Source of the DNA: an uncultured Verrucomicrobiae bacterium
GTDB lineage: Bacteria; Verrucomicrobiota; Verrucomicrobiia; Limisphaerales; Palsa-1400
Assembly (NCBI GenBank): GCA_963707025.1
Contig: CAVPOM010000004.1
Span: 192,001 to 256,000 of the forward strand
DNA length: 64,000 bases
Reading direction: 5' to 3'
The notes below the pieces were generated by a model. That model made no database searches, had not been told where the DNA came from, and saw only the letters and a program-made list of their open reading frames with translations. The stretch's first letter is position 1. Every line of letters begins with the position of its first letter. Both the position numbers and the translations under genes were made by a program. This document shows positions 3,045-39,963 of this stretch, in pieces.

Positions 3045-3088
3045 GCGGCCGCGAAACCGAAAGCGACGAAGAATAGAAATGGATTCCC

Positions 3089-19314: not shown

Positions 19315-19650
19315 TCAACCGGCGCGCCCGGAGGAACGGGACGCGACAACAGCACCAGGAGCGGTCCAGTCCCCGGCCTGAACTGGCACGCGCTCAAGAC
19401 TCCCATTGGGTTGTCACTCCCCGGACTCCGTTGGCTTGGTGATTCAATAGACTGCCAAAGTGACCATAACCCACGGCGAGCGTCAAGCGTTTGTTCACCG
19501 CGCCAGCGTCGCCGGGCGCATCTTGACACTGCCGCCGGCGGAGTGCGGCCGTCCTCGGCCGCAGCAAGCCAGGGATTGTTTGGGTGCTCAGGAAAATCAC
19601 CGCCGCGCCGTGTTTCCCACGCTGCTGCGCCCGAGGACGGGGAATGGCGC

Positions 19651-19998
19651 TTAAATAAGACCTAAAACTTTCTTACCCAGCCTCTTACGACGCGGGGGAT
19701 GCGGGATGGTTTCAAACAAGACCTGACGGCTCAAGCGTTGCATGGCTTTGATGGTGGCTTGCACCTCCCGCCACTCGGCAATGGCGTCATGGAGCCACTC
19801 ATATTGTTCTTTGGAGAGAGCGACACTGACCGTTTTGCCTTTGACCTTGCGGGTCCACTGATAACAAGGGCCGCCTGCTCCGGGGCCGCGGTCTTGCACG
19901 TAGCCCTCGCTGATCCAGCCGGTTCTGGCCAGCCGGTCGCGTAATTGGGCGTATTGGGCCTGCCATTGGGCTGGCCGGGTTGTTTTGTGAGTCGGCAT
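19651..19998 (-). CDS. IS accessory protein, DUF6788-like
   Basis: GP.YQWTRKVKGKTVSV.LS.EQ motif; stop codon lies within the left TIR. Confidence 0.7.
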   Translation of the reverse strand: MPTHKTTRPAQWQAQYAQLRDRLARTGWISEGYVQDRGPGAGGPCYQWTRKVKGKTVSVALSKEQYEWLHDAIAEWREVQATIKAMQRLSRQVLFETIPHPPRRKRLGKKVLGLI

Positions 19999-20024
19999 AA
20001 AGAAAAGAGTAGCAGACGTGTCAA

Positions 20025-20050
20025 TAAGGCGGTATATATACCGCCTTATG
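20025..20050. promoter_or_regulatory. Perfect palindrome overlapping the transposase start codon
   Basis: ataaggcggtatatataccgccttat(g); also present in IS copy 2 near 38307..38332. Confidence 0.6.
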
Positions 20051-21535
20051 CCCGACACCCCCTTCTTCCCGGCCTGGCGGCCCCGTCTGGCGGCGGCGGG
20101 CCGCCGCTGTGCCCACAGCCTGGCGCGCCTCCGTCACGCCACCTTGAGTCAGATCGAGGACCGCCTGGCTCCCGCCTTGCCCACCGACCTCCTGCGAAAA
20201 CCGGCCGCCGGCGACTACTCCCGCGAGCAGGTTTACACTCTGGTTCGCACCTGGTGGTGCTGGGTCTGGCCAGTCTTCCAAGCCAACACTTCCTGCCGCC
20301 ACGTCGTCCTTCAGGTGCAGGCCCTGCTGGCCTTGGTCCAAGGCCCGGAACCGGAGCCGGACAGCAGCGCCTATTGCCAGGCCCGCGCCAAACTCCCCCT
20401 GGCCTTGCTGGAGCAAGCCTTCGCGGCCAGCGCCGACAGCGCCGAAAAGCGCGCCCCGGCCAGTACGCTGCTACAGGGCCGCCCGTTGAAAGCGGTCAAT
20501 GGCAGCGGCACCCACCTGCCCGACACCCCGGCCAATCGGGCGGCCTTTCCCCCCAGCCAAAGCCTGCAGCCCGGCGGCGGCTTTCCCCACCTGCGCGTGG
20601 TGGCTCTGTTCTCCGCCGCCAGCGGCGCCCTTTTGGCCAAAGCCACCGGCAGCCTGCGCTCCTCCGAACTGGCTCTGTTTCTCCACGGCTTGCGCTCGGC
20701 TTTGCACCCCGGCGACATCCTCTTGGGCGACCGCGCCTATGGGGTTTATATTATCGCCGCCGTCCTCCAACTCCTGGGCGTGGATTTGCTCGCGCGGGTC
20801 TCCGTGCGCAACCGCAAGGTGGATTTCCGCCAGGCCCGCCAACGCCTGGGTCACTGGGACGCGCTCTTTACCTGGTCCAAACCCGGCCGGCCTTCGCCCC
20901 TGCTTTCGTTCCTGGAATGGCTCGGACTGCCGCCGCAGATCACGGTGCGGGTGCTGCGCGCGCGCCTGAGCCGGGCCGGCTTCCGCACCCGCCACCTGAC
21001 CCTGGTCACGACCCTGTTGGATGCGGCGCTTTTTCCAGCGGAGGAACTGGCGGCCGCTTATGCCCGGCGCTGGCGCATGGAACTGTGCCTGGACGATCTC
21101 AAAACCACCCTGGGCATGCAGAGCCTGCATTGCCTCTGTCCCCGCATGGTGGAGAAAGAACTCCTGCTCTTCCTCACCGCCCATAATTTCCTGCGCTGGA
21201 TCATGGCCGAAGCCGCGCAAAGCCAGAACGTGGACTTGGATCGGATCAGTTTCAAAGGCAGCCTGGACGCCTTCCGGCAATGGACGCAGGCACTGGCACA
21301 ACTCGGACACGCCCGGAACAAAGGGGGACGGCGCCGCCAATTATGGCAGCGGCTGCTCCGAAGGCTGGCGACCGATCTGGTGCCCAGGCGTCCGGGAAGA
21401 GCGGAGCCGCGCGCTGTCAAGAAACGATCCAAATACCCCCATTTGAACAAATCGCGGCATCAATACCGCCAGCCCTGGAGCCGCAATAAACGCCGCCGTC
21501 TGGCCCGGGCCAAAAGAAAGGCTTCCCTTATTTAA
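20048..21535 (+). CDS. IS4-family DDE transposase, first catalytic Asp replaced by Asn
   Basis: SAYCQARAKL, KAVNGS (DGS in copy 2), LGDRAY, Y..RW.ME...DDLK, R.EPRAVK. Confidence 0.92.
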   Translation: MPDTPFFPAWRPRLAAAGRRCAHSLARLRHATLSQIEDRLAPALPTDLLRKPAAGDYSREQVYTLVRTWWCWVWPVFQANTSCRHVVLQVQALLALVQGPEPEPDSSAYCQARAKLPLALLEQAFAASADSAEKRAPASTLLQGRPLKAVNGSGTHLPDTPANRAAFPPSQSLQPGGGFPHLRVVALFSAASGALLAKATGSLRSSELALFLHGLRSALHPGDILLGDRAYGVYIIAAVLQLLGVDLLARVSVRNRKVDFRQARQRLGHWDALFTWSKPGRPSPLLSFLEWLGLPPQITVRVLRARLSRAGFRTRHLTLVTTLLDAALFPAEELAAAYARRWRMELCLDDLKTTLGMQSLHCLCPRMVEKELLLFLTAHNFLRWIMAEAAQSQNVDLDRISFKGSLDAFRQWTQALAQLGHARNKGGRRRQLWQRLLRRLATDLVPRRPGRAEPRAVKKRSKYPHLNKSRHQYRQPWSRNKRRRLARAKRKASLI

Positions 21536-21780
21536 GCGCCATTCCCCGAGGACGGGCGCACTCCGGTGGCATTCTTCCGCCTGACGCCGGTAGCAGTGTC
21601 AAGATTCACCCAGCGGCGCCGGGCGCCGCCGGGCGACCCTCCGCGTTGGCCGGATGGCCGGGTCTGCGCCAGAGATGGGCGGGCCTGGAAAGTGCAATGA
21701 GCTTGAAGTGGATGGGCAAAGGATGAAACATGGGTGCAGCCGTTTTTAACCTGCTGCGCTCCGTCGCTTTGATGAAATTG

Positions 21781-23319
21781 ATGCAAATGCCAATTCGTGT
21801 TTTGTGGGTGGTCGGGGCTTTTGTTCTGGCGGGGTGCGCGAGCCATCCGCCCGAAACCCGTGTTGTATTCCCAAAGGCTTCCATCAACGGACACCCGGCG
21901 CGGCTGGATTTGGACACCGGTGCGTCTTCCACCGTGCTGTTCGCGGCGCGGGCGGGGCGGCTGGGATTGAAATCCGCCGAAGTATCCGAGCCGGCGCCAG
22001 TGACGATCGCCGGTCAGACCTTGACGGCGCCGCTTCCCATGTTCCGCCTCCCGTGGTATTACCGCCTGGCTTTCATCACGATGAAAGGGCCTGCGCTGGA
22101 CGGGCTGGTGGGCTGGCCCGAAATCCGGGACAATATCCTGGTCTTCGACGCGGAGCGGCGCACGGTTCGCAGTGTGGAACAACTGCCGCCGGAAACGGCC
22201 GGATGGCTGAAACTGAAACTGGTGCCGAACCGGTGGTTGTTGCTGGAAATACCGTTGGCAGGCGGCAAAACGGGGACGTTGGAGGTGGATACCGGCTCTC
22301 CTTACGGCGTCGAAATGCCGCCAGGACAGTGGAAGGAATGGAGGACGGCCCATCCCAAGGCGGCGGTGGCTTCTTATTTGGGCGGCGTCCTTTCTTTTGG
22401 CATCCACTTTTGGCACATGGCCTGGGCGGACCAGATTCAACTGGGGCCTATCACCGTGGCCGATGTTGTTGTGGAAGACATGCCAGCCGACCAAGGCGCC
22501 TATCTCCAGAGCAACGCCTCCGGCGCCACAGCAGTCTGGTCCATTGGCGTGTACGCGCTGCGGCGGTTGGATTTGGTGGTGGATGGGAAGAACGGGTTTG
22601 CCTACGTCCACCCCAAAGCACCGCCCGGGCCGCCTTTTCCAGGGGTCAAACGTCCGGGCGCCCGGAATGGCCCGGCCAACGCTCCAGACACGGGCGGGAA
22701 TTGGACTGTGGCGGACGATGTGCGGTTGATCGGCGACGGTCTTTTCCTCCTCTCGGGCAAGAATAAAGCCAGCAAGGACGATTGGGCCGGCGCGCTGGCG
22801 GATTACAACCGCGCCCTGGAAATCAACCAGAAGAGCGCCGAGGCTTATTCCCGGCGCGGAGTGGCCAGGGAAGTCGAGGGCGACTTTGCTGGTGCCCTGT
22901 CTGACTTTGACAAGGTCATCGAATTGAATCCTGACGCTTCCGACTGGGAGCGTCTGTATCGCCAGACTTTGTTGCGGCGGCTGGGCCGGACGCCGGAAGA
23001 TTATGCCAGGATATTGGCCGGCTGCAAGGAAGGCTGGACCAAAACCCTCGGCCTGTTTCTGGTGGAGAAGCTGGACGAAAAGGCCTTGCTCGCGGCGGCG
23101 GCGAAGAGCGACGGCGAGACGGTGCCCGAGGAAAAAGCCCTGGCCTGTTATTATATCGGCATGATGCGTCTGAGCAAAGGCGACAAGGCGGCAACCCGGT
23201 ATTGGTTTCGCAAATGCCGGGCTGCCGGCATGCAGGGCGATGATGAATATCGGTGCGCAGGCGCGGAGTTGGGGCGGCTGGATGCGCGGAAAAGGCCGGG
23301 GCCAAAGGCCAAAGGCTAA
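21781..23319 (+). CDS. Probable lipoprotein with tandem retropepsin-like aspartyl protease domains and TPR repeats
   Basis: LAGC lipobox; LDTGAS and VDTGS motifs; ALADYNRALEIN TPRs; start uncertain. Confidence 0.78.
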   Translation: MQMPIRVLWVVGAFVLAGCASHPPETRVVFPKASINGHPARLDLDTGASSTVLFAARAGRLGLKSAEVSEPAPVTIAGQTLTAPLPMFRLPWYYRLAFITMKGPALDGLVGWPEIRDNILVFDAERRTVRSVEQLPPETAGWLKLKLVPNRWLLLEIPLAGGKTGTLEVDTGSPYGVEMPPGQWKEWRTAHPKAAVASYLGGVLSFGIHFWHMAWADQIQLGPITVADVVVEDMPADQGAYLQSNASGATAVWSIGVYALRRLDLVVDGKNGFAYVHPKAPPGPPFPGVKRPGARNGPANAPDTGGNWTVADDVRLIGDGLFLLSGKNKASKDDWAGALADYNRALEINQKSAEAYSRRGVAREVEGDFAGALSDFDKVIELNPDASDWERLYRQTLLRRLGRTPEDYARILAGCKEGWTKTLGLFLVEKLDEKALLAAAAKSDGETVPEEKALACYYIGMMRLSKGDKAATRYWFRKCRAAGMQGDDEYRCAGAELGRLDARKRPGPKAKG

Positions 23320-25292
23320 TCGCTCTTGCGCAGCCGCAGCATGGCGGCGCCGTGGGCCGGAACGAACATCTCCACGCGCCCGTCGGCCCCTGGAAAATCC
23401 TTTCTCTGCCACAGGTCGCGCGCCTTGTAGCCGCCGGACAACCCCAACTCGGCCAAGTTTGCGCGCATCGTGGTGTCGTCGTCGGTTCTGTTGAACAAGG
23501 CGAGCGCCTTGGCCCCGCCGCTCAGGTCGCGCAACCAAATCTCCAGTCCGTCCCTGACGGACAGGCGTTTGGCTTGGATGGCTGCGGCGTCCTGGTCGAC
23601 CGCGAGCACTTCGTCGTTGGTCAGCAAGGCCAGTTCCCAGGGATCGGCGTCGGCGAAATTTCCGCCCAGCATCAAGGGGGAGGGGGCGATGCACCACAGC
23701 GTCATCATGGCCACCTGTTCGGATTTTGACAGTTTTGTCCGGCGGTCCGCTCCCACCGAGCGGCCGTTGATGGACAGGTGTCCGAAGGGCAGCATGTCCA
23801 GGTCCGGCCAATGACCCTCCGCGCCGTGGCCGGTCCATTTGGCGGCGATGGCAAAAGCGGCATCGAGCTGGTGCCAGTTGTCCCAGAGATCCCCGGTGGC
23901 GCGCCAGAGGTTGGCATTGGTGGAGACATGGGCGGCTTGGGTGACGGGCGTTTCACCGGGCGAAGTGCTGAACACGATGGGCCGGCCGCACTTGGCAATG
24001 GCCAGATGAATGGCACTGACCTCGGCGGCATGATAAGGGCTGGTCAGGTCGTCCACCTTGACAAAATCCACGCCCCAGGCGGCGTATTGGCGGAAGATGG
24101 AGTCGTACCAGGCCTGGCCCGCCGGGGTGTCGGCGCGCACTCCATACATGAACGGGCACCACGAACACCGGTCGCGGGTATTGCCCGCATCCTGCGCCGT
24201 GAAGCTGGAGCCTTCAATGGGCGTGTTGGCGGCAACCGCGCCCCGCGGAATGCCGCGCATGAGATGAATGCCAAACTTCAAATCCATGGCGTGAACCTCA
24301 TCCGCCAGCGGCTTGAATCCTTTCTCCCCCTCCGCCGAGGGAAACCGGTTCACCGCCGGCAACAAGCGCCCGTATGAATCCATGGGCAATTTAGCCCCCG
24401 CATGTTCGTTGGGCTGGTTGTTGTAGGCCGCCGGATCGTACCAACAATAATCCACCACCACGTATTGCCAGCCATGCGGCTTGAGCCGTTCCGCCACGGC
24501 CTTGGCGTTGGCGCGAAACTCGGCTTCCGTGACGCTGTCGCCATAGCCGTCGTAACTGTTCCAACCCATCGGCGGAGTGGCGGGTTGGCGGGCGGCGGTG
24601 ACGGTCGTGGCCGCTCCGTCCGCCGGCCCTTGCAGGGCAATGACCGGGTTGGTCATCGGACGTGTAAAGGTTTCCGGCTTGGCGCCCGTGACTTCAAAGA
24701 AAGCGTCCGCCCAATCCGCGTGATCGTAATCGAAACCGTCTCCGGCATCACCGACCCGGAGGGCGAGGGTCTTGGCGCCGCTGATATCCACGTCCACGGT
24801 TTTGCCTGGCTGGCCGCCGCTGAGCACACCGCTGCTCCAGATTTGCCTGCCGTCGGCGACGATTTGGAACTCGACCGAGCCGCGCGCGGCCGTTTCGTCA
24901 TCAACTCCAACCACCGCGTGGAACTGGGCGCTGCCGCCCTTGAGATCAATGAGCAACAACTCCACCGAGTGCGTGCCCAAACCGCGCTCAAATTTCTGGC
25001 CGCCAATGGCCAGCGGGTGATTCTCGACGGAACGGTCGGCGCGCGGCGTGCCCCATCCTTGACTGGCCTTGCTGATGTCCAGCGACGAAAGCCAGATTTT
25101 TTCGGCGCGGCCAGCCAGGCAAGCGGCCAGCAACAGGGCTGGAATAATCAGCTCCAGTGCCAGGCGGCGAGGCCGGGTTCTCAAATCAGCCGGCCCGGCC
25201 GTCGCGGCTGGGCGGAATGCAGAATGGAAAATGCCGGAGGCAGAAGTTAAAGCAGGCTGCCCGGCGGTCCCTCTGGCGCAATGGTTGTTCAT
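23316..25292 (-). CDS. GH27 alpha-galactosidase-like enzyme with NPCBM domain
   Basis: QGWG/GLGTH/DHADWADA (NPCBM), PPMGWNSY, WGVDFVKVDD, WPDLDMLP; start uncertain. Confidence 0.88.
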   Translation of the reverse strand: MNNHCARGTAGQPALTSASGIFHSAFRPAATAGPADLRTRPRRLALELIIPALLLAACLAGRAEKIWLSSLDISKASQGWGTPRADRSVENHPLAIGGQKFERGLGTHSVELLLIDLKGGSAQFHAVVGVDDETAARGSVEFQIVADGRQIWSSGVLSGGQPGKTVDVDISGAKTLALRVGDAGDGFDYDHADWADAFFEVTGAKPETFTRPMTNPVIALQGPADGAATTVTAARQPATPPMGWNSYDGYGDSVTEAEFRANAKAVAERLKPHGWQYVVVDYCWYDPAAYNNQPNEHAGAKLPMDSYGRLLPAVNRFPSAEGEKGFKPLADEVHAMDLKFGIHLMRGIPRGAVAANTPIEGSSFTAQDAGNTRDRCSWCPFMYGVRADTPAGQAWYDSIFRQYAAWGVDFVKVDDLTSPYHAAEVSAIHLAIAKCGRPIVFSTSPGETPVTQAAHVSTNANLWRATGDLWDNWHQLDAAFAIAAKWTGHGAEGHWPDLDMLPFGHLSINGRSVGADRRTKLSKSEQVAMMTLWCIAPSPLMLGGNFADADPWELALLTNDEVLAVDQDAAAIQAKRLSVRDGLEIWLRDLSGGAKALALFNRTDDDTTMRANLAELGLSGGYKARDLWQRKDFPGADGRVEMFVPAHGAAMLRLRKSD

Positions 25293-25450
25293 GGAGATTG
25301 CTGAGATCATCCACCAGAATCGGGCCTGAGCCAACCGAAAAATCAGCCGAACAGGACAGAGGGGAGGGACAAACCTGGAGGTAACGTGTCCGTCATCGGT
25401 TGGACGTGAACGACAGCCGACTGCCCGCCCTGCCACCCAGGACTGGCACA

Positions 25451-26479
25451 TTACTCCTGGAGCGCCCAACTCGGTTCGATTTCGGCGTCCAGGCCGGTGG
25501 GCGGGAGGCGGGCCAGGAATTTGCGCTCGGCCAGGATGGCGATCATGGCGGCGTTGTCGGTGGCGTATTTCTTTTCGGCCAGTCGCAACACTAATCCTTC
25601 GCTCTGGCAGGCCTGGGTCAGTTGCCGGCGCAAGGCGCTGTTGCAGGCCACGCCGCCGGAGACGGTGACGCACGGCGCCCCCAGGCGCAGGGCGGCCCGC
25701 ATTGTTTTGGCGACCAGAACGTCCACGATGGCCGCTTGCACGCTGGCGCAGAGGTCGCGCAGACGGGCGGGATCGTCCGGCCAGGCCGGGTTTTTTTCCA
25801 GAAAGTAGCGGACGGCCGTCTTTAAGCCGGAGAAGCTGAAATCATCGCCAGGCTCGTGCAACATGGGGCGGGGAAAGGCGTGGGCGCGCGGGTTGCCTTG
25901 TCCCGCCAGACGGTCCATCTCCGCGCCGGCCGGATAGGCCAAACCGATCATCTTCCCCACTTTGTCGAAGCATTCGCCGGCGGCGTCGTCCACGGTCGAG
26001 CCAAGAACACGATGCCGGAATTCGGCCTCGACCTGCACGAGCAAGGTGTGGCCGCCGCTGACGATCAGGGAGACGGAGGGCTGGAACTGGGCAAAACCAG
26101 CATGAAGCGGCCCGGCGGAAATCCAGGGCGAATAGAGGTGGGCTTCGTGGTGGTGGATGCCGAGGAAAGGCTTGCCGAGGCTGAAGGCGAGCGCCTGGGC
26201 GGCTTTCAAACCGATGAGCAGCGCCCCTGGCAAACCAGGGCCTTGAGTGGCGGCGACGGCATCCAGGTCCGCCGCGGTCAGGCGGGCCTCGCCCAAGGCC
26301 TGGCGGGCGACGGGGAGAAGATTGCGCAAATGTTCGCGGGTGGCCAGTTCTGGAACCACGCCGCCATAGGGGGCGTGCAGACCCGTCTGGCTGGCGACGA
26401 CGTTGGAGAGGACGCGGCCGCCGGAAACGACCGCCGCGCTGGTTTCATCGCACGAAGTCTCGAAAGCGAACAAGTTCAA
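25451..26479 (-). CDS. tsaD: tRNA N6-adenosine threonylcarbamoyltransferase
   Basis: ETSCDET, GGVVPE, HHHEAH, VSGGHT, DDAAGECFDK, FSFSGLKT, TDNAAMIA. Confidence 0.96.
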   Translation of the reverse strand: MNLFAFETSCDETSAAVVSGGRVLSNVVASQTGLHAPYGGVVPELATREHLRNLLPVARQALGEARLTAADLDAVAATQGPGLPGALLIGLKAAQALAFSLGKPFLGIHHHEAHLYSPWISAGPLHAGFAQFQPSVSLIVSGGHTLLVQVEAEFRHRVLGSTVDDAAGECFDKVGKMIGLAYPAGAEMDRLAGQGNPRAHAFPRPMLHEPGDDFSFSGLKTAVRYFLEKNPAWPDDPARLRDLCASVQAAIVDVLVAKTMRAALRLGAPCVTVSGGVACNSALRRQLTQACQSEGLVLRLAEKKYATDNAAMIAILAERKFLARLPPTGLDAEIEPSWALQE

Positions 26480-26552
26480 AGCTCAGAGGGCGCGCCGGGC
26501 GGGGCGCCCGTTGCCATTTCCGCACCCGCGGGGGCCAGGCGGCGCCATGGGA

Positions 26553-27881
26553 TTATTTGGCCGCCTCAGCCACTTTGGCGGGGGTAAAGCGCTGGGCGTA
26601 GAGGAGCACCCCTTTGAGCAGGTCAGCCGCCCGTTCCAATTGGAGATCATGTGTATTCTTGACTCGTTCGCGGTCCTTCTCATCGAGCAGTTCCACGGCG
26701 CCGGAGGTGTGTGCGACGTGCAAATCCTCTTCCTCCTGCGGGGTCAGCGGCACCAGAATGTCCGGGGTGATGCCGTGCTCGTGGATGACTTTGTGGCTGG
26801 GGGTGTAGTATTTGGCGGTGGTCAGCTTCAAGGCCGAGCCGTCGCCCAGGGGCAGGATGCTTTGCACGGAACCTTTGCCGAAAGTCTGCTCGCCAACGAC
26901 GATGGCGTGGGTAAAAGTTTCCTGGTAATCCTGGAGGCAGCCGGTGACGATTTCGGCGGCGCTGGCGCTGCCCGAGTTGACCAGGATGACCATGGGCAGA
27001 TTAACGCGCTGGCCGCGGGTGTGGGCGCGGTACTCGTAATAGTGGTTCGGGCCGCGGCCTTCGGTGGAGACAATTTTCTGGCCGTAGGGCAGGAATTGTT
27101 CGCAGACATGTTCGGCCTGGTCGAGCAGTCCGCCGGGGTTGTCGCGCAGATCCAGGATCAGGGCCTTCATCCCTTTGTCGGTCAGCTTGGCCAGGGCGGC
27201 GCGCAAATCGTCGGACGTTTTCTCGCCGAACTGGTTGATGCGCACGTAGCCGATGCTGTTTTCGCCCAGCGGAAATTCCTGTTTGTTGTTCATGTCCTGC
27301 ACGGTGGGCACCTTGACGATGGCCCGCACCAGATCGAATCTCTTGGTTTCACCGCTGGAAGGGCGATGGATGGTGATGGAGACCTTGGTGCCCGGAGGGC
27401 CGCGCAAGACCCCAACGGCGTCTTCCAAACCCATCTTCTCGGTGCTGCGGTCGTTGATTTTGATGATTTGGTCCCACGGCAGAATGCCGGCGCGATAGCC
27501 GGGCGAGTCGTCCATGGGCGTGATGACCGTCAACAATTTGTCCCGGCCCACTTCGACCATGATGCCGATGCCGCCAAACTCGCCCTCGGTGTCGTTTTTC
27601 AGGTCCTCAAAGCGGCGCGCGTCCATGTATTCGCTGTGGGGATCCAGCGAGCCGAGCATGCCCTTGAGGGCGGCGCGCACCAGGTCCTGATAGTTGATTT
27701 TGTCGCCGTCCACGTATTCCGTGCGCACTTTCTCCATGACATCGGCCAGCAGTTTGTAGTTTTCGTAGGGGTTGTCGCTGGCGGGGGCGGCCTGGGCGGA
27801 ATAGAAATAAATGCGCGCGCCGATGAGGAGGTTGGTGGCCAGCAGGGCGAGGAGGCAGGAGTAGAACACACGGCGTTTCAT
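26553..27881 (-). CDS. ctpA: Carboxy-terminal processing protease (S41A)
   Basis: LDPHS, PDZ domain, LDLRDNPGG, SASAAEI, TFGKGSVQ. Confidence 0.92.
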   Translation of the reverse strand: MKRRVFYSCLLALLATNLLIGARIYFYSAQAAPASDNPYENYKLLADVMEKVRTEYVDGDKINYQDLVRAALKGMLGSLDPHSEYMDARRFEDLKNDTEGEFGGIGIMVEVGRDKLLTVITPMDDSPGYRAGILPWDQIIKINDRSTEKMGLEDAVGVLRGPPGTKVSITIHRPSSGETKRFDLVRAIVKVPTVQDMNNKQEFPLGENSIGYVRINQFGEKTSDDLRAALAKLTDKGMKALILDLRDNPGGLLDQAEHVCEQFLPYGQKIVSTEGRGPNHYYEYRAHTRGQRVNLPMVILVNSGSASAAEIVTGCLQDYQETFTHAIVVGEQTFGKGSVQSILPLGDGSALKLTTAKYYTPSHKVIHEHGITPDILVPLTPQEEEDLHVAHTSGAVELLDEKDRERVKNTHDLQLERAADLLKGVLLYAQRFTPAKVAEAAK

Positions 27882-28101
27882 AAGCATTTAATAATGGATC
27901 ACAATATATAACAAGCAGCCTACCATACCTTCTCAACGGGAGATTAGCAAGGCGGCTTGGCGACTTTTACCCCGGTTTTCAGCAACCGGCTGGAAGCGAC
28001 GGGGTGAACCCGCCGTGGCTCCGCCAGATTGCGCCGCGGCGGGAAGGCCGGTTTTGGAATTAGGAATGGGCATTTCCCGGGTCCAGTGGTATTGCTGGGG
28101 C

Positions 28102-28803: not shown

Positions 28804-28814
28804 GGGAATACAAT

Positions 28815-31155: not shown

Positions 31156-32169
31156 ATGATTATTGTCCTCAAACCCGGGTTGTCGAAGAAGGACGAGACG
31201 GCAGTTCTGCGGGAAATCAAGAAACTGGGCTACCGGCCGCACGTCATGCGCGGGGTGGAACGGATCGTGGTCGGGGCCATCGGGGACGAACGGACCCACC
31301 AAAGCCTGGAAATGCTGGCCTCCTGGCCGCAGGTGGAGCGGGTCATGCCCGTGCAAAAACGCTACAAGCTGGTCAGCCGCGAGGCCCACAAGCTGACTTC
31401 CACCATGACGGTGCGCGGCCAGGTCATCGGCGCCAAAAAAATCCAGGTCATGGCCGGCCCGTGCTCGGTGGAGAATGAGCGGCAGTTGCTCGCCACCGCC
31501 CACGCCGTCCAGCAGGCCGGCGCCACTTTCTTGCGCGGGGGCGCTTTCAAACCGCGCACCTCTCCGTATGAATTCCAGGGGCTGGGCCGCAAAGGGCTGA
31601 AATTGCTGGCCAAGGCACGGCGCGAAACCGGCCTGGCGGTCATTACCGAGTTGCTTTCCGAAGCGCACGCCGGCCTGGTGGCCGAATACGCCGACATCAT
31701 TCAAATCGGGGCCAGAAACTCCCAGAACTTTCAGTTGCTCATCGCCGCGGCCAAAACCGGCCGGCCCGTTTTGCTCAAACGCGGCCTGTCCATGCGCATC
31801 GAGGAATGGCTGCTGGCGGGCGAATATGTTTTGTCCAACAACAATCCCCATCTGCTCTTCTGCGAACGGGGCATCCGCACCTTTGAAACTTACACCCGCA
31901 ACACCCTGGACCTCTCCGCCATTCCCATCATCAAACAGGAATCCCATTGCCCCATCATTATTGATCCCAGCCAGGGGGCGGGGCGGGCCGAATTGGTCGC
32001 GGCCATGTGCAAAGGCGCGGTGGCCATGGGCGCCGACGGGCTGTTGATCGAAGTGCATCCCAATCCCGCCGAGGCTTGGAGCGACGGGGCGCAGCAATTG
32101 ACGCTGGAAGGGTTCGCCCGGTTGATGGAGGAGTTAAAGCCGTTTATCGCGGCGGCGGGCCGGGAATGA
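31156..32169 (+). CDS. aroF: DAHP synthase (type I-beta with N-terminal regulatory domain)
   Basis: AGPCSVE, RGGAFKPRTSPY, QIGARN, CERGIRTFE, EVHP.P..AWSDG. Confidence 0.94.
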   Translation: MIIVLKPGLSKKDETAVLREIKKLGYRPHVMRGVERIVVGAIGDERTHQSLEMLASWPQVERVMPVQKRYKLVSREAHKLTSTMTVRGQVIGAKKIQVMAGPCSVENERQLLATAHAVQQAGATFLRGGAFKPRTSPYEFQGLGRKGLKLLAKARRETGLAVITELLSEAHAGLVAEYADIIQIGARNSQNFQLLIAAAKTGRPVLLKRGLSMRIEEWLLAGEYVLSNNNPHLLFCERGIRTFETYTRNTLDLSAIPIIKQESHCPIIIDPSQGAGRAELVAAMCKGAVAMGADGLLIEVHPNPAEAWSDGAQQLTLEGFARLMEELKPFIAAAGRE

Positions 32170-32289
32170 GACGAGCAATTTTGAATGTTGAATTTTGAAT
32201 TGGGAAAGGGGGATGTCAGAATGAATGTTTGCGGGGCACGCAATCAGCCCTTGCTCAGCCTGGCAATTCCGGGTATAGTGGTCACAGGC

Positions 32290-32487
32290 ATGAGCGCACA
32301 GGAAATCATCGAGCAGATTAAATCGCTGCCTGCAGCGGAACGGGCCGCAGTGGCCAGATTTATTGCCGAACAGGATGATTGCTGGATTCCAGACGAATTC
32401 AAGGAAGCGATGAAAGAGGCCGAAGCGGGGCGTTGCGTGGACATGGAAACCGCATTATTTCAGACGCCGCCGGCGCATCTGCAATGA
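32290..32487 (+). CDS. Putative antitoxin
   Basis: 65-aa acidic protein (MSAQEIIEQIKSLP..ER); ATGA overlap with the toxin gene. Confidence 0.6.
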   Translation: MSAQEIIEQIKSLPAAERAAVARFIAEQDDCWIPDEFKEAMKEAEAGRCVDMETALFQTPPAHLQ

Positions 32488-32759
32488 AATATCGCTACCG
32501 CGCGACCGAGAAATTTTGGACGAGCTTTTACCGAGTGGCCCCACCGCAGAAGGAATCCTGCCACAAAGCCTGGCAGATCTTCAAGGAAAATCCATTTGAC
32601 TCGCGGTTGCGTTCACACCAGATCCACCGTCTTTCGGCCCGCTATGGCAGGACTATTTATTCGGCGACAATGGAAGACGATTTGCGGTTGCTCTTTTACG
32701 CTGAGGGCGAAACCATCACGTCTTTGATCCTTGGAACGCACGATATATATGAGGGCTGA
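32484..32759 (+). CDS. RelE/ParE-superfamily toxin
   Basis: F..NPFD.RLRSH.I, DLRLLF, C-terminal GTHDIY. Confidence 0.75.
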   Translation: MKYRYRATEKFWTSFYRVAPPQKESCHKAWQIFKENPFDSRLRSHQIHRLSARYGRTIYSATMEDDLRLLFYAEGETITSLILGTHDIYEG

Positions 32760-32873
32760 AGATGAAGAGGCCCCTTCACAACGCGATGGAACGCATCAAG
32801 AGCAGGCTTCAGGGCCGGAGCAAGACTCAATGTGGGGGTTGGAATATACGGGGCAGTGCGGTTTTGGCGTCAA

Positions 32874-34592
32874 TTATAACGACTTCCGCCAGTCCAGAAC
32901 GCGCAATTGCACGGAGCAGCGGCCCTGGTAAACGTTGATGGCCGGGGTGAAGGCGAGGTCAAACCGTCCTTGCGGCATGGGGGCCTGGCCCGCGCTCCAC
33001 CAGACCGCTTCCAAGGCGGCCCGGCCGTCGGTGAAACGCCATTTGACATGCTGGTTTTCCTTGCCCATTCGTTGCGGGGCCTGGCGCATGCTTAAGCCGC
33101 GCATCAGCCATTGCACCGGCGGGTTGCCCTGGCCGGTGGGGGCCAGAGCGGCCAGTTGCTCCATCAGGTCCAAGGTCATGTCCGGGCCGGCCACTTCCCC
33201 GTCCAACTTCAGGCAAGGCTCCAGTTGTTCGGGCTGCAACGCCTGCCGCGCCAGTTCATTCAAGCGGGCCCGGAACAGGTCCACTTGCTCGGGCCGGGCG
33301 GTGACTCCGGCGGCCATGCCGTGGCCGCCGTGGCGCAGCAGCAGGCTGTCGCAACTTTGCAACGCCGCCGCCAGATCAAATCCTGCAATGCTTCGGCCCG
33401 ACCCGCGCCAGAGCGCGCCGTCGCCGCCCAAGAGGATGGTGGGGCGATAAAACCGTTTCACCACCCGCGAGGCCACGATGCCCACCACCCCGATATGCCA
33501 GGAGTCGCGCCCTTCGACGATGACAAAATCCTTTTCCTGGTTGAAACGGGCCTGGACGGCGGCAATGACTTCCTCCGCCATGGCGCGTTCGATTTGCTGG
33601 CGCTGGCGGTTGCGCTCGTCCAGGCTTTGGGCGAGCGGATCGGCCGCGGCGGCGTCGCCGGCCAGGAGGAGGCGCAGGGCCTCTTCGGCGTCTTGCAGGC
33701 GTCCGGCGGCGTTGAGGCGCGGAGCGAGTTGAAAACCCACCTCATAGCTGCCGATGGGCAAAGGACACTGCGCCACCGTTTTCAGCGCCATCAGGCCGGG
33801 ACGGCGGGTCACGCTGAGTTGTTCCAGCCCCGCGCGGGCCAGGATGCGATTTTCACCCGTCAACGGAACCAGGTCGGCAATGGTGCCCAGCGCGACCAAA
33901 TCCAGGTGCTGGCGCAGATCATAATTGACAGCGGCCGGCTCGCCGCTTTGGCGGAGCTGTTTGACCAGGGCGTGGGCCAGTTTAAAGGCCAGCCCCGCCG
34001 AGCAGTACTCCGCCGCCGCGCCGGGCGGACCGGCCAGGCGCGGATTGACCAGCGCCACGGCCGGGGGCGGCGGCACGGAAACTTGGTGGTGATCGAGCAC
34101 GATGACCCCGGTTCCCTGTTGAGCGAGCCAGGCGATGGTGCCGGCGGCGGTCGAGCCGCAATCCACCGCCAGCAGCCATGGGGCGGGATGTTTTTGCAGG
34201 CAATGCTCCGCCGCCTCCCGGCTCAAGCCGTAGCCTTCGTCCATGCGATGCGGCAAATAATAATTGACGTTCCAGCCCAGCGCGCCGAGCGTTTGCAGAA
34301 GCAGGGCGGTGGAGGTGACGCCATCCACGTCGTAATCGCCAAAAATAACGACCGCTTCCCCGCGCTGGCGGGCCAGCAGGAGACCTTGCACCGCCGCCGC
34401 CATATTGGGCAGGAGCAGCGGGTCCGCCAAATCCTTCAGGCGCGGGCGCAAAAAGCGGGCGGCTTGGTCCGGCCCGACGAGGCCGCGGTTGACCAGGCAT
34501 TGCGCCAGCAGGGGAGAGACCCCCAGGGCGGCGGCGAGGGCAGCGGCGACACCGGTGGACGGCGCCTCGGGCAATGACCAGCGATATTTCAT
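32874..34592 (-). CDS. recJ: ssDNA-specific exonuclease RecJ
   Basis: GDYDVDG, VDCG, LDHH, GTIADLVPL, PRLNAAGRL, GSGRS, GGH.MAAG. Confidence 0.96.
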   Translation of the reverse strand: MKYRWSLPEAPSTGVAAALAAALGVSPLLAQCLVNRGLVGPDQAARFLRPRLKDLADPLLLPNMAAAVQGLLLARQRGEAVVIFGDYDVDGVTSTALLLQTLGALGWNVNYYLPHRMDEGYGLSREAAEHCLQKHPAPWLLAVDCGSTAAGTIAWLAQQGTGVIVLDHHQVSVPPPPAVALVNPRLAGPPGAAAEYCSAGLAFKLAHALVKQLRQSGEPAAVNYDLRQHLDLVALGTIADLVPLTGENRILARAGLEQLSVTRRPGLMALKTVAQCPLPIGSYEVGFQLAPRLNAAGRLQDAEEALRLLLAGDAAAADPLAQSLDERNRQRQQIERAMAEEVIAAVQARFNQEKDFVIVEGRDSWHIGVVGIVASRVVKRFYRPTILLGGDGALWRGSGRSIAGFDLAAALQSCDSLLLRHGGHGMAAGVTARPEQVDLFRARLNELARQALQPEQLEPCLKLDGEVAGPDMTLDLMEQLAALAPTGQGNPPVQWLMRGLSMRQAPQRMGKENQHVKWRFTDGRAALEAVWWSAGQAPMPQGRFDLAFTPAINVYQGRCSVQLRVLDWRKSL

Positions 34593-34749
34593 TTTAGGGC
34601 CGGAACCAAAGCCGGCCGTTTGGTGGCAGTGACCTGATTTGATGGTTGCAGAGTCGGCGCGGTGCGCCGATTTCGAGGCACAGGCTCGAGCGTTTTCACA
34701 AATACTGCAGCCGCATCACGCCGCAGGGTCCCGGCAGGCCGGGATTGCC

Positions 34750-34781
34750 CGCCGCGGCGCGCACGGAGTGCGCGCCCTACC
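34750..34781 (-). repeat. GTAG-type REP palindrome
   Basis: Minus strand GGTAGGGCGCGCACTCCGTGCGCGCC. Confidence 0.55.
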
Positions 34782-34817
34782 ATCCTCATTTAGGGCTGCA
34801 CAATTTCTTAAACCGCC

Positions 34818-37388
34818 TTAGACGCGGGCGCGCGCGGCGCCGGCGGCGGCGCCGGTGGCGGCGGAGGACTCCGCCACGGCCCGCGGGGCGGTGCTGGGGC
34901 GTTCGCCTTTGTGCCACCAAAGGACCAGGGCGCAGGCGATGTAGATGCTGGAATAGGTGCCGCTGATGATGCCGACCAAAAAGGTGAAGGCAAAATCCTT
35001 GATCGCCCCGCCGCCGAAGACAAAGAGCGACATGGTGGAAAGAAAGACCGTGCCGGAGGTAATGATGGTGCGGCTCAAGGTCTGGTTGACCGCCTTGTTG
35101 ATGATTTCGCGGAACGTGCCGCGCAATCCCAGTTTCAAATCCTCCCGGATGCGGTCGAAAATAACGACCTTGTCGTTGAGGGAGAAGCCGATGATGGTCA
35201 GAACGGCCGCGACCATGGGGGCGCTGAGCTGGCGGCCGGACATGAAAAAGATGCCGAGGGTGAGGAAGACGTCGTGGACGACGGCCACGACGGCGCCGAT
35301 GGAAAAGGAAAACTCGTAGCGAAAGGCCACGTAAAACAAGATGCCGAAGAGGGACAAAAACGAGGCGAACACCGCCGACCTGGTGATGTCCTCGCCGACC
35401 GAGGGGCCGACGGTGGTAATCCCGGCGACGGAGAAGCCGGCGGCGGGAAATTCTTTGGCCAGGGTATTGGTCACGGCGTCGGCCGTTTTAAACGGGGAGA
35501 CGATCTTCAAGGTTTCCGCCCCGACGCCTTTTTCGTACTGGATTTCCGGCTCGCTTCCCAGGGCGGCATGGAGGGCGGGGCGCAATTTGTCCGGTTCCAC
35601 CCGGTTGGTGAAACTGAAGGTCACGGCGTCGCCGCCGGCAAATTCAGGGCCCTCGACCTTTTTGCCAAGATGAAAGCCGTAACCCATTCCGGCCACGATC
35701 AGCGCGGCGGAGAGGAAATAAGCCAGCTTGTTCCATTTCATGAAATCCCATTCCGGGTTTTTGATGATGTGCAACATGCCCACTTTGTTGAGCCAGCCGC
35801 GGTTGAGGAGGAAATCAAAAATCAGGCGCGTGACCACCAGGGCGGTGAACAAGCTCAAGGCCACGCCGATGGTGAGAGTGACGCCGAATCCCTTGACCGG
35901 GCCGGTGCCCATGTAGATGAGGATGACGGCGGAAATGAGCGTGGTGGTGTGGGAGTCGAAAATGGTGGCGAAGGCGCGGCTGTAAGCGGCGGCGATGGCC
36001 CCGCGCATGGATTTGCCCAGCGACATTTCTTCGCGCAACCGTTCGTAAATCAGCACGTTGGCATCCACCGCCATGCCGACGGTCAGGACGATGCCGGCGA
36101 TGCCCGGCAGGGAGAGGGTGGTGCCGATGGAACACATGATGCCCAGGGTGATGACCAGATTGAGCAGCATGGCGAAATCGGCCAGCAGCCCGCAGCGATG
36201 ATAGTAAACCGCCATGAACACCACCACCGCCAGCGTGCCGATCACGGCGGACCAGATGCCCTTATGAATCGAATCTGCGCCGAGGGTGGGACTGACTTGG
36301 TTCATGGCGTCTATATGCACCGGCGTTTCCAGGGGGTTTTCCAGCATGTTCGCCGTGGAGATGGCTTCGGCAATGTCCATGGCGCCTCCGCTGATTCGGC
36401 AGCGGCCGCCGAGAATTGGCTCCTCGATGTGCGGCGCGGTTTGGATGACGCCGTCCAGCACGATGGCCATGTAGCCGTCATTATTGGCGGTGGTGAGCCT
36501 GCCGAATTTGGCGGCTCCCTCCTTGTCAAACTCGATATTCACCTCCGGAGCGCCGGAGGGGTCGCGGCTGGCACCGGCCTTCTTGATATATTTCCCGGTC
36601 AGACCTTCGCTGGGCTTTTTTTCCACCAGGTAGGGAACGAAGGTGACCTTGCCGGCGTCGTCCTTGTGCTTCATCCTCAAAATCTCGTAGCCCGGCGGAA
36701 TGACCAGAGGTTGTTGCAAGAGAATCTCGTGGTTCTGCGGATGAACCACGCGGAACTCCAGGAAGGCGGCTTTTTGAATTTTCGTCTTGGCTTCATCCTG
36801 AGCGGCCTGGGAAAGGCCGGGCAACTGGATGCTGATTTCATTTTCGCCCGCGGCGGTGATGAGCGGTTCGGCCACGCCCATCGAGTCCACGCGGCTGCGC
36901 AGGATGGTGATGGCCTGGGAAACCAGGCGCTTGCGTTCATCGGCGGCGTTGAGGGCGTTGTGGTTGGTGTCGTTGGCGGAAACATGGTTGGTGTCCAGGC
37001 TCACCCGGAATTCGGTGCCGCCCTGGAGATCCAGCCCGAGATGGATTTTGCCGGCGGCTTTGCGCTGCAGGATGTTGAGCAGGGTGTAGGTCGGGTTTTC
37101 CTGTCCCCGGACATCATTGTAGGGGAAGTATGGCTGGATGTCGTTGGTGCCGATGGCGGTCATCAGATCGGAGAATTCGCGCGTCGGGTCCGGCTTGGCG
37201 GCCTGCAAATCCCGGGCCTGCTTGACGATTTTCTCGAAGACCGGGTTCATGGCGCCGCGGTCGGCCTTGTCCTGGAATTCCTGGATCAAGCTTTGGTTGG
37301 TCAGCGGATACATTTCCCACAGGGAGCCGAGCACCATGAAGGCGATCAAGGCCCAGAAGAATTTGGGATGACGTGTGACAATGTTCAT
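34818..37388 (-). CDS. secDF: Fused protein translocase SecD/SecF
   Basis: LGLDLQGG, GMAVDANVLIYER, VVHDV, GFSLNDKVVIFDRIRE, GTYSSIYIA. Confidence 0.95.
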   Translation of the reverse strand: MNIVTRHPKFFWALIAFMVLGSLWEMYPLTNQSLIQEFQDKADRGAMNPVFEKIVKQARDLQAAKPDPTREFSDLMTAIGTNDIQPYFPYNDVRGQENPTYTLLNILQRKAAGKIHLGLDLQGGTEFRVSLDTNHVSANDTNHNALNAADERKRLVSQAITILRSRVDSMGVAEPLITAAGENEISIQLPGLSQAAQDEAKTKIQKAAFLEFRVVHPQNHEILLQQPLVIPPGYEILRMKHKDDAGKVTFVPYLVEKKPSEGLTGKYIKKAGASRDPSGAPEVNIEFDKEGAAKFGRLTTANNDGYMAIVLDGVIQTAPHIEEPILGGRCRISGGAMDIAEAISTANMLENPLETPVHIDAMNQVSPTLGADSIHKGIWSAVIGTLAVVVFMAVYYHRCGLLADFAMLLNLVITLGIMCSIGTTLSLPGIAGIVLTVGMAVDANVLIYERLREEMSLGKSMRGAIAAAYSRAFATIFDSHTTTLISAVILIYMGTGPVKGFGVTLTIGVALSLFTALVVTRLIFDFLLNRGWLNKVGMLHIIKNPEWDFMKWNKLAYFLSAALIVAGMGYGFHLGKKVEGPEFAGGDAVTFSFTNRVEPDKLRPALHAALGSEPEIQYEKGVGAETLKIVSPFKTADAVTNTLAKEFPAAGFSVAGITTVGPSVGEDITRSAVFASFLSLFGILFYVAFRYEFSFSIGAVVAVVHDVFLTLGIFFMSGRQLSAPMVAAVLTIIGFSLNDKVVIFDRIREDLKLGLRGTFREIINKAVNQTLSRTIITSGTVFLSTMSLFVFGGGAIKDFAFTFLVGIISGTYSSIYIACALVLWWHKGERPSTAPRAVAESSAATGAAAGAARARV

Positions 37389-37403
37389 GAAGGTGGGGGG
37401 CGA

Positions 37404-37751
37404 TCAGGATGAGGACGATTCGCCGCTGCGCTCGGTGACCTCGGCCACGGCGGATTTAAGAATTTCAAGTTTGGTATCGTTGGAGCGGATGGAAATGGTT
37501 TTGTCTTTGAGGGACAAAACCACCGCGACAATGCCGCTGCTGGTCACGATTTTGTCGCCGGCGCGCAGGTTCTTGATCATGGCGGCCAGTTCCTTGGCCC
37601 GTTTTTGCTGGGGCCGGAATAAAAACAGCCACATCATCAGGACCATGCCGCCCATGAGCAGGACGGTTTGGAGCATCTGGGCGGTCGGATTTGGCGCCGG
37701 CTGGGTCGCGGCCGGGTCGGCCAGCAAGAATTTCAAACCACTTAAATTCAT
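37404..37751 (-). CDS. yajC: Preprotein translocase subunit YajC
   Basis: FRPQQKR, GDKIVTSSGI; upstream of secDF. Confidence 0.92.
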   Translation of the reverse strand: MNLSGLKFLLADPAATQPAPNPTAQMLQTVLLMGGMVLMMWLFLFRPQQKRAKELAAMIKNLRAGDKIVTSSGIVAVVLSLKDKTISIRSNDTKLEILKSAVAEVTERSGESSSS

Positions 37752-37932
37752 ATATTCCAAAGTGAGCCGTTCAATCTAGGGCAGGGAACGCGTTTGGCAA
37801 GCACAACCTTCCCGAAAACGCCGCCCAATGCAATGCTGGAATGAGCGCCCCTGTCCGGGCGCATCTTGGCGCTGCTACTGGCGGCAGGCGCAAGAATGCC
37901 ACTGGAGTGCGCCCGTCCTCGGGGAATGGCGC

Positions 37933-38280
37933 TTAAATAAGACCTAAAACTTTCTTACCCAGCCTCTTACGACGCGGGGGATGCGGGATGGTTTCAAACA
38001 AGACCTGACGGCTCAAGCGTTGCATGGCTTTGATGGTGGCTTGCACCTCCCGCCACTCGGCAATGGCGTCATGGAGCCACTCATATTGTTCTTTGGAGAG
38101 AGCGACACTGACCGTTTTGCCTTTGACCTTGCGGGTCCACTGATAACAAGGGCCGCCTGCTCCGGGGCCGCGGTCTTGCACGTAGCCCTCGCTGATCCAG
38201 CCGGTTCTGGCCAGCCGGTCGCGTAATTGGGCGTATTGGGCCTGCCATTGGGCTGGCCGGGTTGTTTTGTGAGTCGGCAT
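37933..38280 (-). CDS. IS accessory protein, DUF6788-like
   Basis: Identical protein to 19651..19998. Confidence 0.7.
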   Translation of the reverse strand: MPTHKTTRPAQWQAQYAQLRDRLARTGWISEGYVQDRGPGAGGPCYQWTRKVKGKTVSVALSKEQYEWLHDAIAEWREVQATIKAMQRLSRQVLFETIPHPPRRKRLGKKVLGLI

Positions 38281-38329
38281 AAAGAAAAGAGTAGCAGACG
38301 TGTCAATAAGGCGGTATATATACCGCCTT

Positions 38330-39817
38330 ATGCCCGACACCCCCTTCTTCCCGGCCTGGCGGCCCCGTCTGGCGGCGGCGGGCCGCCGCTGTGCCCACAG
38401 CCTGGCGCGCCTCCGTCACGCCACCTTGAGTCAGATCGAGGACCGCCTGGCTCCCGCCTTGCCCACCGACCTCCTGCGAAAACCGGCCGCCGGCGACTAC
38501 TCCCGCGAGCAGGTTTACACTCTGGTTCGCACCTGGTGGTGCTGGGTCTGGCCAGTCTTCCAAGCCAACACTTCCTGCCGCCACGTCGTCCTTCAGGTGC
38601 AGGCCCTGCTGGCCTTGGTCCAAGGCCCGGAACCGGAGCCGGACAGCAGCGCCTATTGCCAGGCCCGCGCCAAACTCCCCCTGGCCTTGCTGGAGCAAGC
38701 CTTCGCGGCCAGCGCCGACAGCGCCGAAAAGCGCGCCCCGGCCAGTACGCTGCTACAGGGCCGCCCGTTGAAAGCGGTCGATGGCAGCGGCACCCACCTG
38801 CCCGACACCCCGGCCAATCGGGCGGCCTTTCCCCCCAGCCAAAGCCTGCAGCCCGGCGGCGGCTTTCCCCACCTGCGCGTGGTGGCTCTGTTCTCCGCCG
38901 CCAGCGGCGCCCTTTTGGCCAAAGCCACCGGCAGCCTGCGCTCCTCCGAACTGGCTCTGTTTCTCCACGGCTTGCGCTCGGCTTTGCACCCCGGCGACAT
39001 CCTCTTGGGCGACCGCGCCTATGGGGTTTATATTATCGCCGCCGTCCTCCAACTCCTGGGCGTGGATTTGCTCGCGCGGGTCTCCGTGCGCAACCGCAAG
39101 GTGGATTTCCGCCAGGCCCGCCAACGCCTGGGTCACTGGGACGCGCTCTTTACCTGGTCCAAACCCGGCCGGCCTTCGCCCCTGCTTTCGTTCCTGGAAT
39201 GGCTCGGACTGCCGCCGCAGATCACGGTGCGGGTGCTGCGCGCGCGCCTGAGCCGGGCCGGCTTCCGCACCCGCCACCTGACCCTGGTCACGACCCTGTT
39301 GGATGCGGCGCTTTTTCCAGCGGAGGAACTGGCGGCCGCTTATGCCCGGCGCTGGCGCATGGAACTGTGCCTGGATGATCTCAAAACCACCCTGGGCATG
39401 CAGAGCCTGCATTGCCTCTGTCCCCGCATGGTGGAGAAAGAACTCCTGCTCTTCCTCACCGCCCATAATTTCCTGCGCTGGATCATGGCCGAAGCCGCGC
39501 AAAGCCAGAACGTGGACTTGGATCGGATCAGTTTCAAAGGCAGCCTGGACGCCTTCCGGCAATGGACGCAGGCACTGGCACAACTCGGACACGCCCGGAA
39601 CAAAGGGGGACGGCGCCGCCAATTATGGCAGCGGCTGCTCCGAAGGCTGGCGACCGATCTGGTGCCCAGGCGTCCGGGAAGAGCGGAGCCGCGCGCTGTC
39701 AAGAAACGATCCAAATACCCCCATTTGAACAAATCGCGGCATCAATACCGCCAGCCCTGGAGCCGCAATAAACGCCGCCGTCTGGCCCGGGCCAAAAGAA
39801 AGGCTTCCCTTATTTAA
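38330..39817 (+). CDS. IS4-family DDE transposase (intact triad)
   Basis: KAVDGS, LGDRAY, YARRWRME. Confidence 0.93.
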   Translation: MPDTPFFPAWRPRLAAAGRRCAHSLARLRHATLSQIEDRLAPALPTDLLRKPAAGDYSREQVYTLVRTWWCWVWPVFQANTSCRHVVLQVQALLALVQGPEPEPDSSAYCQARAKLPLALLEQAFAASADSAEKRAPASTLLQGRPLKAVDGSGTHLPDTPANRAAFPPSQSLQPGGGFPHLRVVALFSAASGALLAKATGSLRSSELALFLHGLRSALHPGDILLGDRAYGVYIIAAVLQLLGVDLLARVSVRNRKVDFRQARQRLGHWDALFTWSKPGRPSPLLSFLEWLGLPPQITVRVLRARLSRAGFRTRHLTLVTTLLDAALFPAEELAAAYARRWRMELCLDDLKTTLGMQSLHCLCPRMVEKELLLFLTAHNFLRWIMAEAAQSQNVDLDRISFKGSLDAFRQWTQALAQLGHARNKGGRRRQLWQRLLRRLATDLVPRRPGRAEPRAVKKRSKYPHLNKSRHQYRQPWSRNKRRRLARAKRKASLI

Positions 39818-39963
39818 GCGCCATTCCCCGTCCTCGGGCGCAGCAGCGTGGGAAACACGGCGCGGCGGTGCTTTTCCTGAGCACCCAAACAATCCCTGGC
39901 TTGCTGCGGCCGGGGACGGGCGCACTCCGCCGGCAGCCGTGCCAAGATACGCCCGCCCTGTCC

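Follow-up and report, generated by a model that had tools for sequence, protein, structure and literature searches.

An IS4-family insertion sequence with a DUF6788 gene occupies the palindrome of RAYT-associated REP doublets in a Verrucomicrobiae genome

We analyzed a 64,000-nucleotide stretch of an uncultured Verrucomicrobiae bacterium (GenBank GCA_963707025.1, contig CAVPOM010000004.1, positions 192,001 to 256,000; hereafter the window), which carries two copies of a 1903-bp insertion sequence (IS) of the IS4 family. All 17 full copies of this IS in the genome (G000; 6.9 Mb, 88% complete; C-numbers below denote its contigs) were found within the same 20-bp palindrome, TGCG-CCCG-N4-CGGG-CGCA, of a repetitive extragenic palindromic (REP) sequence, and 17 of the 46 such sites are occupied. 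With all 17 copies confined to 46 sites in 6.9 Mb of sequence, chance insertion is excluded. We consider it probable that a recently expanded element of subgroup IS4 reads the REP palindrome mainly by sequence via its transposase, that the REPs are older and RAYT-associated, and that the DUF6788 protein also encoded by the element is an accessory.

Both window copies are on the plus strand (19642-21544 and 37924-39826) and show two differences. The 12-mer CCCGAGGACGGG occurs in the window only at positions 19630 and 21545, and its reverse complement, CCCGTCCTCGGG, only at 37912 and 39827; since each is confined to the borders of its own IS, both are 12-bp target duplications. In silico removal of the IS restored two 183-bp empty hosts (from 19514-21611 and 37857-39954), which are mutually inverted and identical at 168 of 183 positions. 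An earlier note on this DNA had described the two copies, the 12-mer duplicated by both and the inverted 183-bp hosts, all of which we confirmed. The stem-loop that it placed at the target is present too, with a stem of 8 bp (TGCGCCCG), one more than it had given.

Across the genome, each copy differs from window copy 1 by 0-2 changes, and perfect 12-bp duplications were found at 13/17. A pattern joining REP and terminal inverted repeat (TIR) matched both ends of all copies (17+17 hits), the outer flanks are unique to each copy, and none of the 380 CCCG-N4-CGGG sites elsewhere in the genome is occupied. According to a crude gene caller (73% coding), 17/17 copies are intergenic. Such figures are what the earlier note had sought when it proposed collecting all copies with their flanks and searching for empty hosts. 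Its view that the insertions are independent is borne out by the orientation of the IS relative to the repeat (9:8), the use of two host subfamilies and a separate GGGA/GGGA duplication. The 183-bp form proved to be a subfamily (31/54 host entries) whose members have the same spacer and, in most cases, an additional inverted repeat on the outside. It holds 12 of the insertions. The other 5/17 are found in different surroundings, which shows that insertion does not depend on the 183-bp host, and one insertion is in the opposite arm. The idea that this host, or a given arm of it, is the target was therefore abandoned in favor of the REP palindrome.

The palindrome is part of a 26-bp REP tagged with GGAG, of which 99 copies were detected within 5 mismatches. 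These are arranged in 53 clusters (43 inverted pairs, one double pair and nine singles) with a pitch of 82-85 bp, nearly always 84, and the IS occupies 17/53 clusters of this one REP family. Among the 46 exact sites, 43 are intergenic, two are genic and one is at a contig edge; a REP doublet within a called gene (C3:272913 and 272995, in IS-removed coordinates) is unoccupied. A gene on C10 matched the RAYT model NF047646 (83.2 bits, cut-off 80) and has one REP doublet on each side; it is the only one of ten Y1 transposase loci flanked by doublets of the targeted REP. Since the RAYT gene is bracketed by the same doublets, the host is a REPIN-type repeat (for the term, see PMC3116915). The same REP is abundant in two of five congeners, in whose fragmented genomes no close transposase was found, and thus the REP does not depend on this IS. 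Four other Y1 genes (C14:199524, C12:50141, C6:59763 and C6:93941) each have a flanking repeat family of their own, none of which is occupied by the IS. Moreover, a 1170-aa open reading frame (ORF) that resembles alanyl-tRNA synthetase by eye includes an in-frame Y1 transposase domain (C3:324218-324505).

We propose that a transposase dimer would recognize the REP palindrome TGCGCCCG-N4-CGGGCGCA mainly by sequence, presumably by direct readout, and would insert the IS symmetrically, with a 12-nt stagger centered on the loop and probably by Tn5-like cut-and-paste chemistry. IS4-family Tn5 and Tn10 move by cut and paste via hairpin intermediates. Symmetric insertion on the loop would give random orientation and a duplication equal to the hairpin top. 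The REP doublets would be a separate, older population tied to the RAYT gene, which the IS may use as intergenic landing sites; a role of the REP as a safe harbor fits the 17/17 intergenic copies, and the IS might benefit from such sites. Specificity would be lodged in the transposase and may have changed several times in a Verrucomicrobiota-centered clade, whereas DUF6788 would be an exchangeable accessory, most likely a regulator at the palindrome that the two genes of the IS share and not a targeting factor. The REP-homing IS4 transposon of the earlier note thus stands as to REP-specific insertion, and the word homing, with its endonuclease and gene-conversion sense, is better replaced by transposase targeting.

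Homologues of the element were identified in 14/40 relatives, 17/300 genomes of the class and 27/400 genomes of the order, and the GTDB collection yielded 149 homologous loci, the best 80 of which are mostly from Verrucomicrobiota. The relatives share the TIR, make 10-12-bp duplications and use at least five other repeat families, several of which flank Y1 transposases. Their targets include GGGGWSAS-type 11-mers, CCC-N5-GGG hairpins and GTT-CCC-N4-GGG-AAC. In genome G982 (loci L275-L294), 19/19 copies of one relative lie in another GGAG REP with a 10-bp duplication, and three copies of a second relative, which has the same TIR as the window IS, lie at the edge of a GTAG REP, two relatives thereby sharing the repeats of one genome. 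Insertions of relatives are within 1 kb of a Y1 gene in 9/46 cases, and the gene type agrees with the target class.

A FastTree phylogeny of 63 transposases, whose target labels were assigned by pattern (11 unlabelled or unclear, three corrected by eye), placed GGGGWSAS targeting at the base, including elements without DUF6788. A clade of 24 (support 0.96) contains the window IS and the users of CCC-N5/6-GGG, and the 10-bp group represents a second origin. The DUF-less relatives, mostly 1540-1590 bp (about 1.55 kb), are also target-specific. The identity of DUF6788 bears little relation to that of the transposase (rho 0.17; 1326 pairs, not independent), and we therefore assign specificity to the transposase. 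Target class follows the transposase tree, not DUF6788; on these grounds, the specificity of DUF-less relatives and the uncoupled identities, DUF6788 was rejected as a targeting factor. A loop that follows the first catalytic Asp (residues 168-179) is rewritten in the derived clade, C177 being present in 26/26 basal elements and in 1/23 of that clade; this difference amounts to one origin, and the loop was discarded as the sole specificity switch and kept as a weak lead. At some loci (L048 and L054 in G239; L125 and L127; L279), IS copies were observed head to tail or in neighboring repeats with a shared duplication. In G544, the sequence to the left of one copy is the same as that to the right of another (L190 and L192), a reciprocal hybrid produced by a rearrangement.

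We then weighed other explanations of the insertion pattern. A transposase that reads the shape of an extruded hairpin at supercoiled sites, with sequence secondary, appears very unlikely. It would agree with a duplication centered on the loop, with loop bases that vary among relatives and with sites enriched between divergent genes. However, the second arm of the 183-bp hosts, usually without the target sequence, has a compensatory change (GCCG stem) of equal predicted energy (-11.7), and such arms, many of them 84 bp from an occupied one, are occupied in 0/28 cases vs 17/46 of the targeted sites (Fisher 1.2e-4 on 17/46 vs 0/27; p 0.025 when restricted to GGGA loops). As the isoenergetic GCCG hairpin is never occupied, sequence counts and not shape alone; a hairpin of like geometry does not suffice. 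Further against a reading of shape, 70 other CCC-N6-GGG hairpins with stems of at least 6 bp (116 minus 46) are unoccupied, and the target of the basal relatives is a non-palindromic 11-mer. The effect of the loop is small (AGGA 12/27 and GGGA 4/18 occupied, p 0.2), and other repeats of this genome, including motifs used by relatives, are unoccupied (motif counts 15, 15, 38, 13 and 13). There is no support for the view that the IS drove the GCCG arm to arise as an escape variant, because this arm also occurs in the congeners, in whose fragmented genomes the IS was not found.

Tethering of the transposase to the REP by DUF6788, or by a host REP-binding protein such as RAYT, has slight plausibility. 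DUF6788 is present in most relatives, is often more conserved than the transposase (79-82% vs 50-53% identity) and, in its model, has a basic tail and a sheet of three strands flanked by helices, and some relatives insert close to Y1 genes (the 9/46 above). Yet DUF-less relatives are also specific, near-identical transposase loops with the same target class go with DUFs 44% and 79% identical to that of the window IS, DUFs 75-77% identical accompany the other target class, and the congeners hold the REP with this IS not found there. It is highly improbable that one or two insertions were spread as REPIN cargo mediated by RAYT or by gene conversion between REPINs, as the 99.9% identity of the IS copies might suggest. 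All four allele combinations at IS nt 857 and 1336 are present among the copies (C6:343448 and C6:45230 involved), which also favors this explanation and suggests exchange between copies, mobilization in trans or assembly error. It is opposed by hosts that diverge by about 8% when the IS diverges by 0.04%, by both orientations, two host subfamilies, the opposite-arm case and the private GGGA/GGGA duplication, and by locus-specific duplications in relatives. Least credible is weak insertion specificity with a pattern that arose through selection or through repeats collapsed in the assembly. In its favor, every site is intergenic, genome completeness is 88% and no read or contig crosses window copy 2 (reads were examined at the C16 copy only). 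Against it, 17/17 insertions are at the same base even though the crude caller assigns about a quarter of the genome to non-coding DNA, the outer flanks differ from copy to copy, and independent genomes behave in the same way, for example with 19/19 in another REP in G982.

Recognition of the REP palindrome by sequence via the transposase also faces contrary points. Divergent gene pairs flank 11/17 occupied vs 7/28 empty sites (p 0.013, crude gene caller), an enrichment that does not suit pure sequence readout and could be due to supercoiling or to the loss of polar insertions by selection. The pattern could also look sharper than it was at insertion if copies that landed in genes were selected against, and an added need for a cruciform structure beside the sequence is compatible with the data. 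The target labels of the tree are pattern-derived with three fixed by eye. The candidate specificity loop stayed near-canonical through two target shifts in G982 (QQPECGFP, QKPGCGFP). In addition, 4/17 copies have imperfect duplications, two of them with an inverted loop, which is not expected from plain cut-and-paste.

Over all 17 duplications, 10/204 positions differ between the two sides vs 0.0004 per base within the IS. In each of the four imperfect cases, the left copy matches a duplication present at other insertions, whereas the variant on the right is less common. On C15 (138213-140115) and C16 (17331-19233), the left loop is inverted for its REP context and the right one is the GGGA variant; the inverted loop was seen in none of the 46 rebuilt sites. 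Among insertions of relatives, 11/46 are imperfect (two with the left-side pattern, none clearly right-side, nine ambiguous or plain hybrids), and 1/19 in G982 is imperfect with left consensus, which could be a simple mutation. Classifiable cases are 7:0 for the left side (two-sided 0.016 by arithmetic, with classes set after most data were seen). Reciprocal recombination was rejected for the four cases, as left and right host halves agree in subtype and direction and no reciprocal product was found among the 17; template switching between flanks predicts TCCC for a GGGA target, and TCCT is observed. Gene conversion and polishing error are likelier than carry-over of a flank; hybrid flanks are known for ISRm22 (PMC1525189) and in general (PMC11708052). 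A broader and rather unlikely scenario is that a two-gene IS4 clade diversified by parasitizing repeats associated with Y1 transposases, with every variant specialized on a single family. Its insertion would not always be clean Tn5-type cut-and-paste: some events would carry along the left flank of the donor, either by single-end attack or because a retained flap anneals to the homologous 12-nt gap, and DUF6788 might assist. Such carry-over would explain the consensus or foreign left copy in all seven classified imperfect duplications.

At the C16 copy, run X1, which may be the source sample, gave a depth of 20-27 over the IS vs 0-7 on the flanks, and its loose ends include both junction types; no contig from the reads crosses the left junction of this copy and none spans a whole copy. 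In run X2, one contig of low depth connects the right TIR with a C16-like arm whose loop is inverted (1 mismatch in 124); it may be a library chimera. Runs X3-X8 contribute small shares only. A scan of 400 genomes of the order with the junction pattern returned one other hit, and a metagenome scan with patterns drawn from variable stretches returned two distant loci.

Judged by its 18-bp TIRs, YREK motif and 12-bp duplication, the element is classified in subgroup IS4 of the IS4 family. The transposase matched the hidden Markov model of the IS4 family, NF033592, with 151.3 bits (cut-off 115); D151, D228 and E345 are invariant among 40 aligned transposases, and the motif Y-(2)-R-(3)-E-(6)-K is present as Y338, R341, E345 and K352. 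The best Foldseek fold match is Tn5 transposase (E 2e-8, TM about 0.4), and a sequence search of solved structures returned Tn5 alone (E 0.3). Subgroup IS4 is characterized by ends of -AATR--------WTW, YREK, 10-13-bp repeats and a typical size of 1400-1650 bp (PMC2266710, Table 1). Both IS ends, G-AATG-GCGCTTAA-ATA-AG, fit this signature, and direct repeats of 12 bp in 13/17 copies and 10-12 bp in relatives are inside its range; the size of 1903 bp exceeds the typical range, which is no strict criterion, because of the extra DUF6788 gene. Plasmid matches to the IS are labelled merely 'IS4 family' or ISAcma16 family (33-37%). The earlier note had assigned the family correctly and overlooked both the DUF6788 gene and the D151N change of window copy 1, which recurs in one C6 copy (2/17); a +1 frameshift is present in 2/17 copies, both on C6, and D151N and the frameshift are the two changes that occur in all four combinations.

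The DUF6788 search yielded 5120 homologous clusters, and the gene is kept in relatives. Its modelled fold had no Foldseek match at E 0.001, its best VIA match (Z 5.9) was to generic helical hairpins, and an Atlas search returned only DUF6788 or unnamed clusters. The name cyclopropane fatty-acyl-phospholipid synthase-like methyltransferase, attached to many homologues (P0011 among them), is probably wrong and derived from a weak match (CMAS, E 0.02). A single weak DUF6788 match below the cut-off lies apart from any IS copy (C18:411045-411200). In the literature searched, mostly without subscription journals, we found no paper that names the DUF6788 family and, also without ISfinder, no description of the clade or of its partition of repeat families.

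REP targeting by an IS4-family element is already-known behavior. The earlier note correctly cited REP targeting in the IS3 and IS110 families and overlooked ISRm22 of Sinorhizobium meliloti 1021, an IS4-family element with 10/10 copies in REPs at the palindrome axis (PMC1525189, Tobes and Pareja 2006) and imperfect direct repeats in 3/9, ascribed to recombination (PMC1525189). Both ISRm22 and the window IS are IS4-family DDE elements that target REPs and have some imperfect repeats. However, ISRm22 has 6-bp repeats and belongs to another subgroup, IS4Sa (PMC2266710), whereas the window IS has 12-bp repeats, subgroup-IS4 ends, DUF6788 and a GGAG-tagged, RAYT-flanking doublet as host. IS1397, ISKpn1 and ISPsy8 (IS3) and IS621, ISPa11 and ISPpu9/10 (IS110) insert almost exclusively at a fixed REP position (PMC1525189); their transposases are unrelated to that of the window IS and make 0-3-bp repeats, and IS110 elements use a bridge RNA (PMC11208160). 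For subgroup IS4, De Palmenaer 2008 (PMC2266710) described 'spectacular apparent insertion specificity' in the target arms, which the window IS shares along with ends, YREK and repeat length. That paper, as far as consulted, reports extra genes solely for subgroup IS231, and the window IS carries one; in the same sections no link of subgroup-IS4 targets to REP, RAYT or TIRYT was found, though its figures or supplements may list such targets. The host resembles RAYT/REPIN and TIRYT systems in its tagged palindromes, inverted doublets, fixed spacing and Y1 gene. The target of basal relatives matches the TIRYT motif GGGGWSAS (PMC3733652, PMC6006769), and the string GGAG, the host tag, is absent from the sections of these two papers that were consulted.

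What is added here is a natural control in which the stem is preserved, the link of the targets to RAYT and TIRYT systems, a clade in which the target changed repeatedly, and an accessory gene. The novelty is at the clade level: relatives with the same ends each use a different repeat family, and most carry the extra gene. Their transposases are 40-57% identical and their ends almost alike, and each has a different 10-12-bp site, nearly without exception. The clade therefore offers a natural series in which to study how specificity for a long site is built into a Tn5-like enzyme, and it might also supply site-specific DDE integrases; DUF6788 gains a context as an IS accessory gene.

In the window, the left part of host 1 (19514-19641, +) comprises an outer inverted repeat, the untargeted REP arm (19540-19565, +; GGAG tag and the GCCG-stem variant), the spacer and the first half of the targeted arm, ending in the left duplication (19630-19641, +). 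IS copy 1 begins with a perfect 18-bp left TIR (19642-19659, +). The DUF6788 gene (19651-19998, minus strand, 115 aa; PF20586, E 1e-9, above cut-off) is divergent from the transposase gene (20048-21535, +, 495 aa), in which codon 151 (20498-20500) specifies Asn for the first catalytic Asp. Both genes terminate within the TIRs, the right one being at 21527-21544 (-). Between them, a perfect 26-bp palindrome (20024-20049) ends in the transposase ATG and is a candidate operator or translation-control hairpin; a palindrome with arms of 6-13 bp is present in 16/16 elements compared and at this position in 15/16. The right duplication (21545-21556, +) is followed by the right part of host 1 (21557-21611, +), consisting of the REP end and outer inverted repeat. 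The genes on either side of copy 1 are a Cys/Met-metabolism gene and a protease/TPR gene; those around copy 2 are secDF and an S8 peptidase gene. Host 2 is inverted: its short part (37857-37923, -) includes the left duplication (37912-37923), and IS copy 2, with its DUF6788 gene at 37933-38280 (-) and a DDE-intact transposase gene at 38330-39817 (+), is followed by the right duplication (39827-39838, +) and the long part (39839-39954, -), which holds the spacer, the second REP arm (about 39903-39928, imperfect stem) and the outer inverted repeat. Apart from the IS, the window contains a 101-bp direct repeat (2955-3054 and 4215-4315; 96% identical, 1260 bp apart), an imperfect inverted repeat of 68 bp within ORFs (52068-52135) and three paralogous stretches in adjacent ORFs (57244-57665, 59046-59371 and 60132-60553) that are 67-74% identical.

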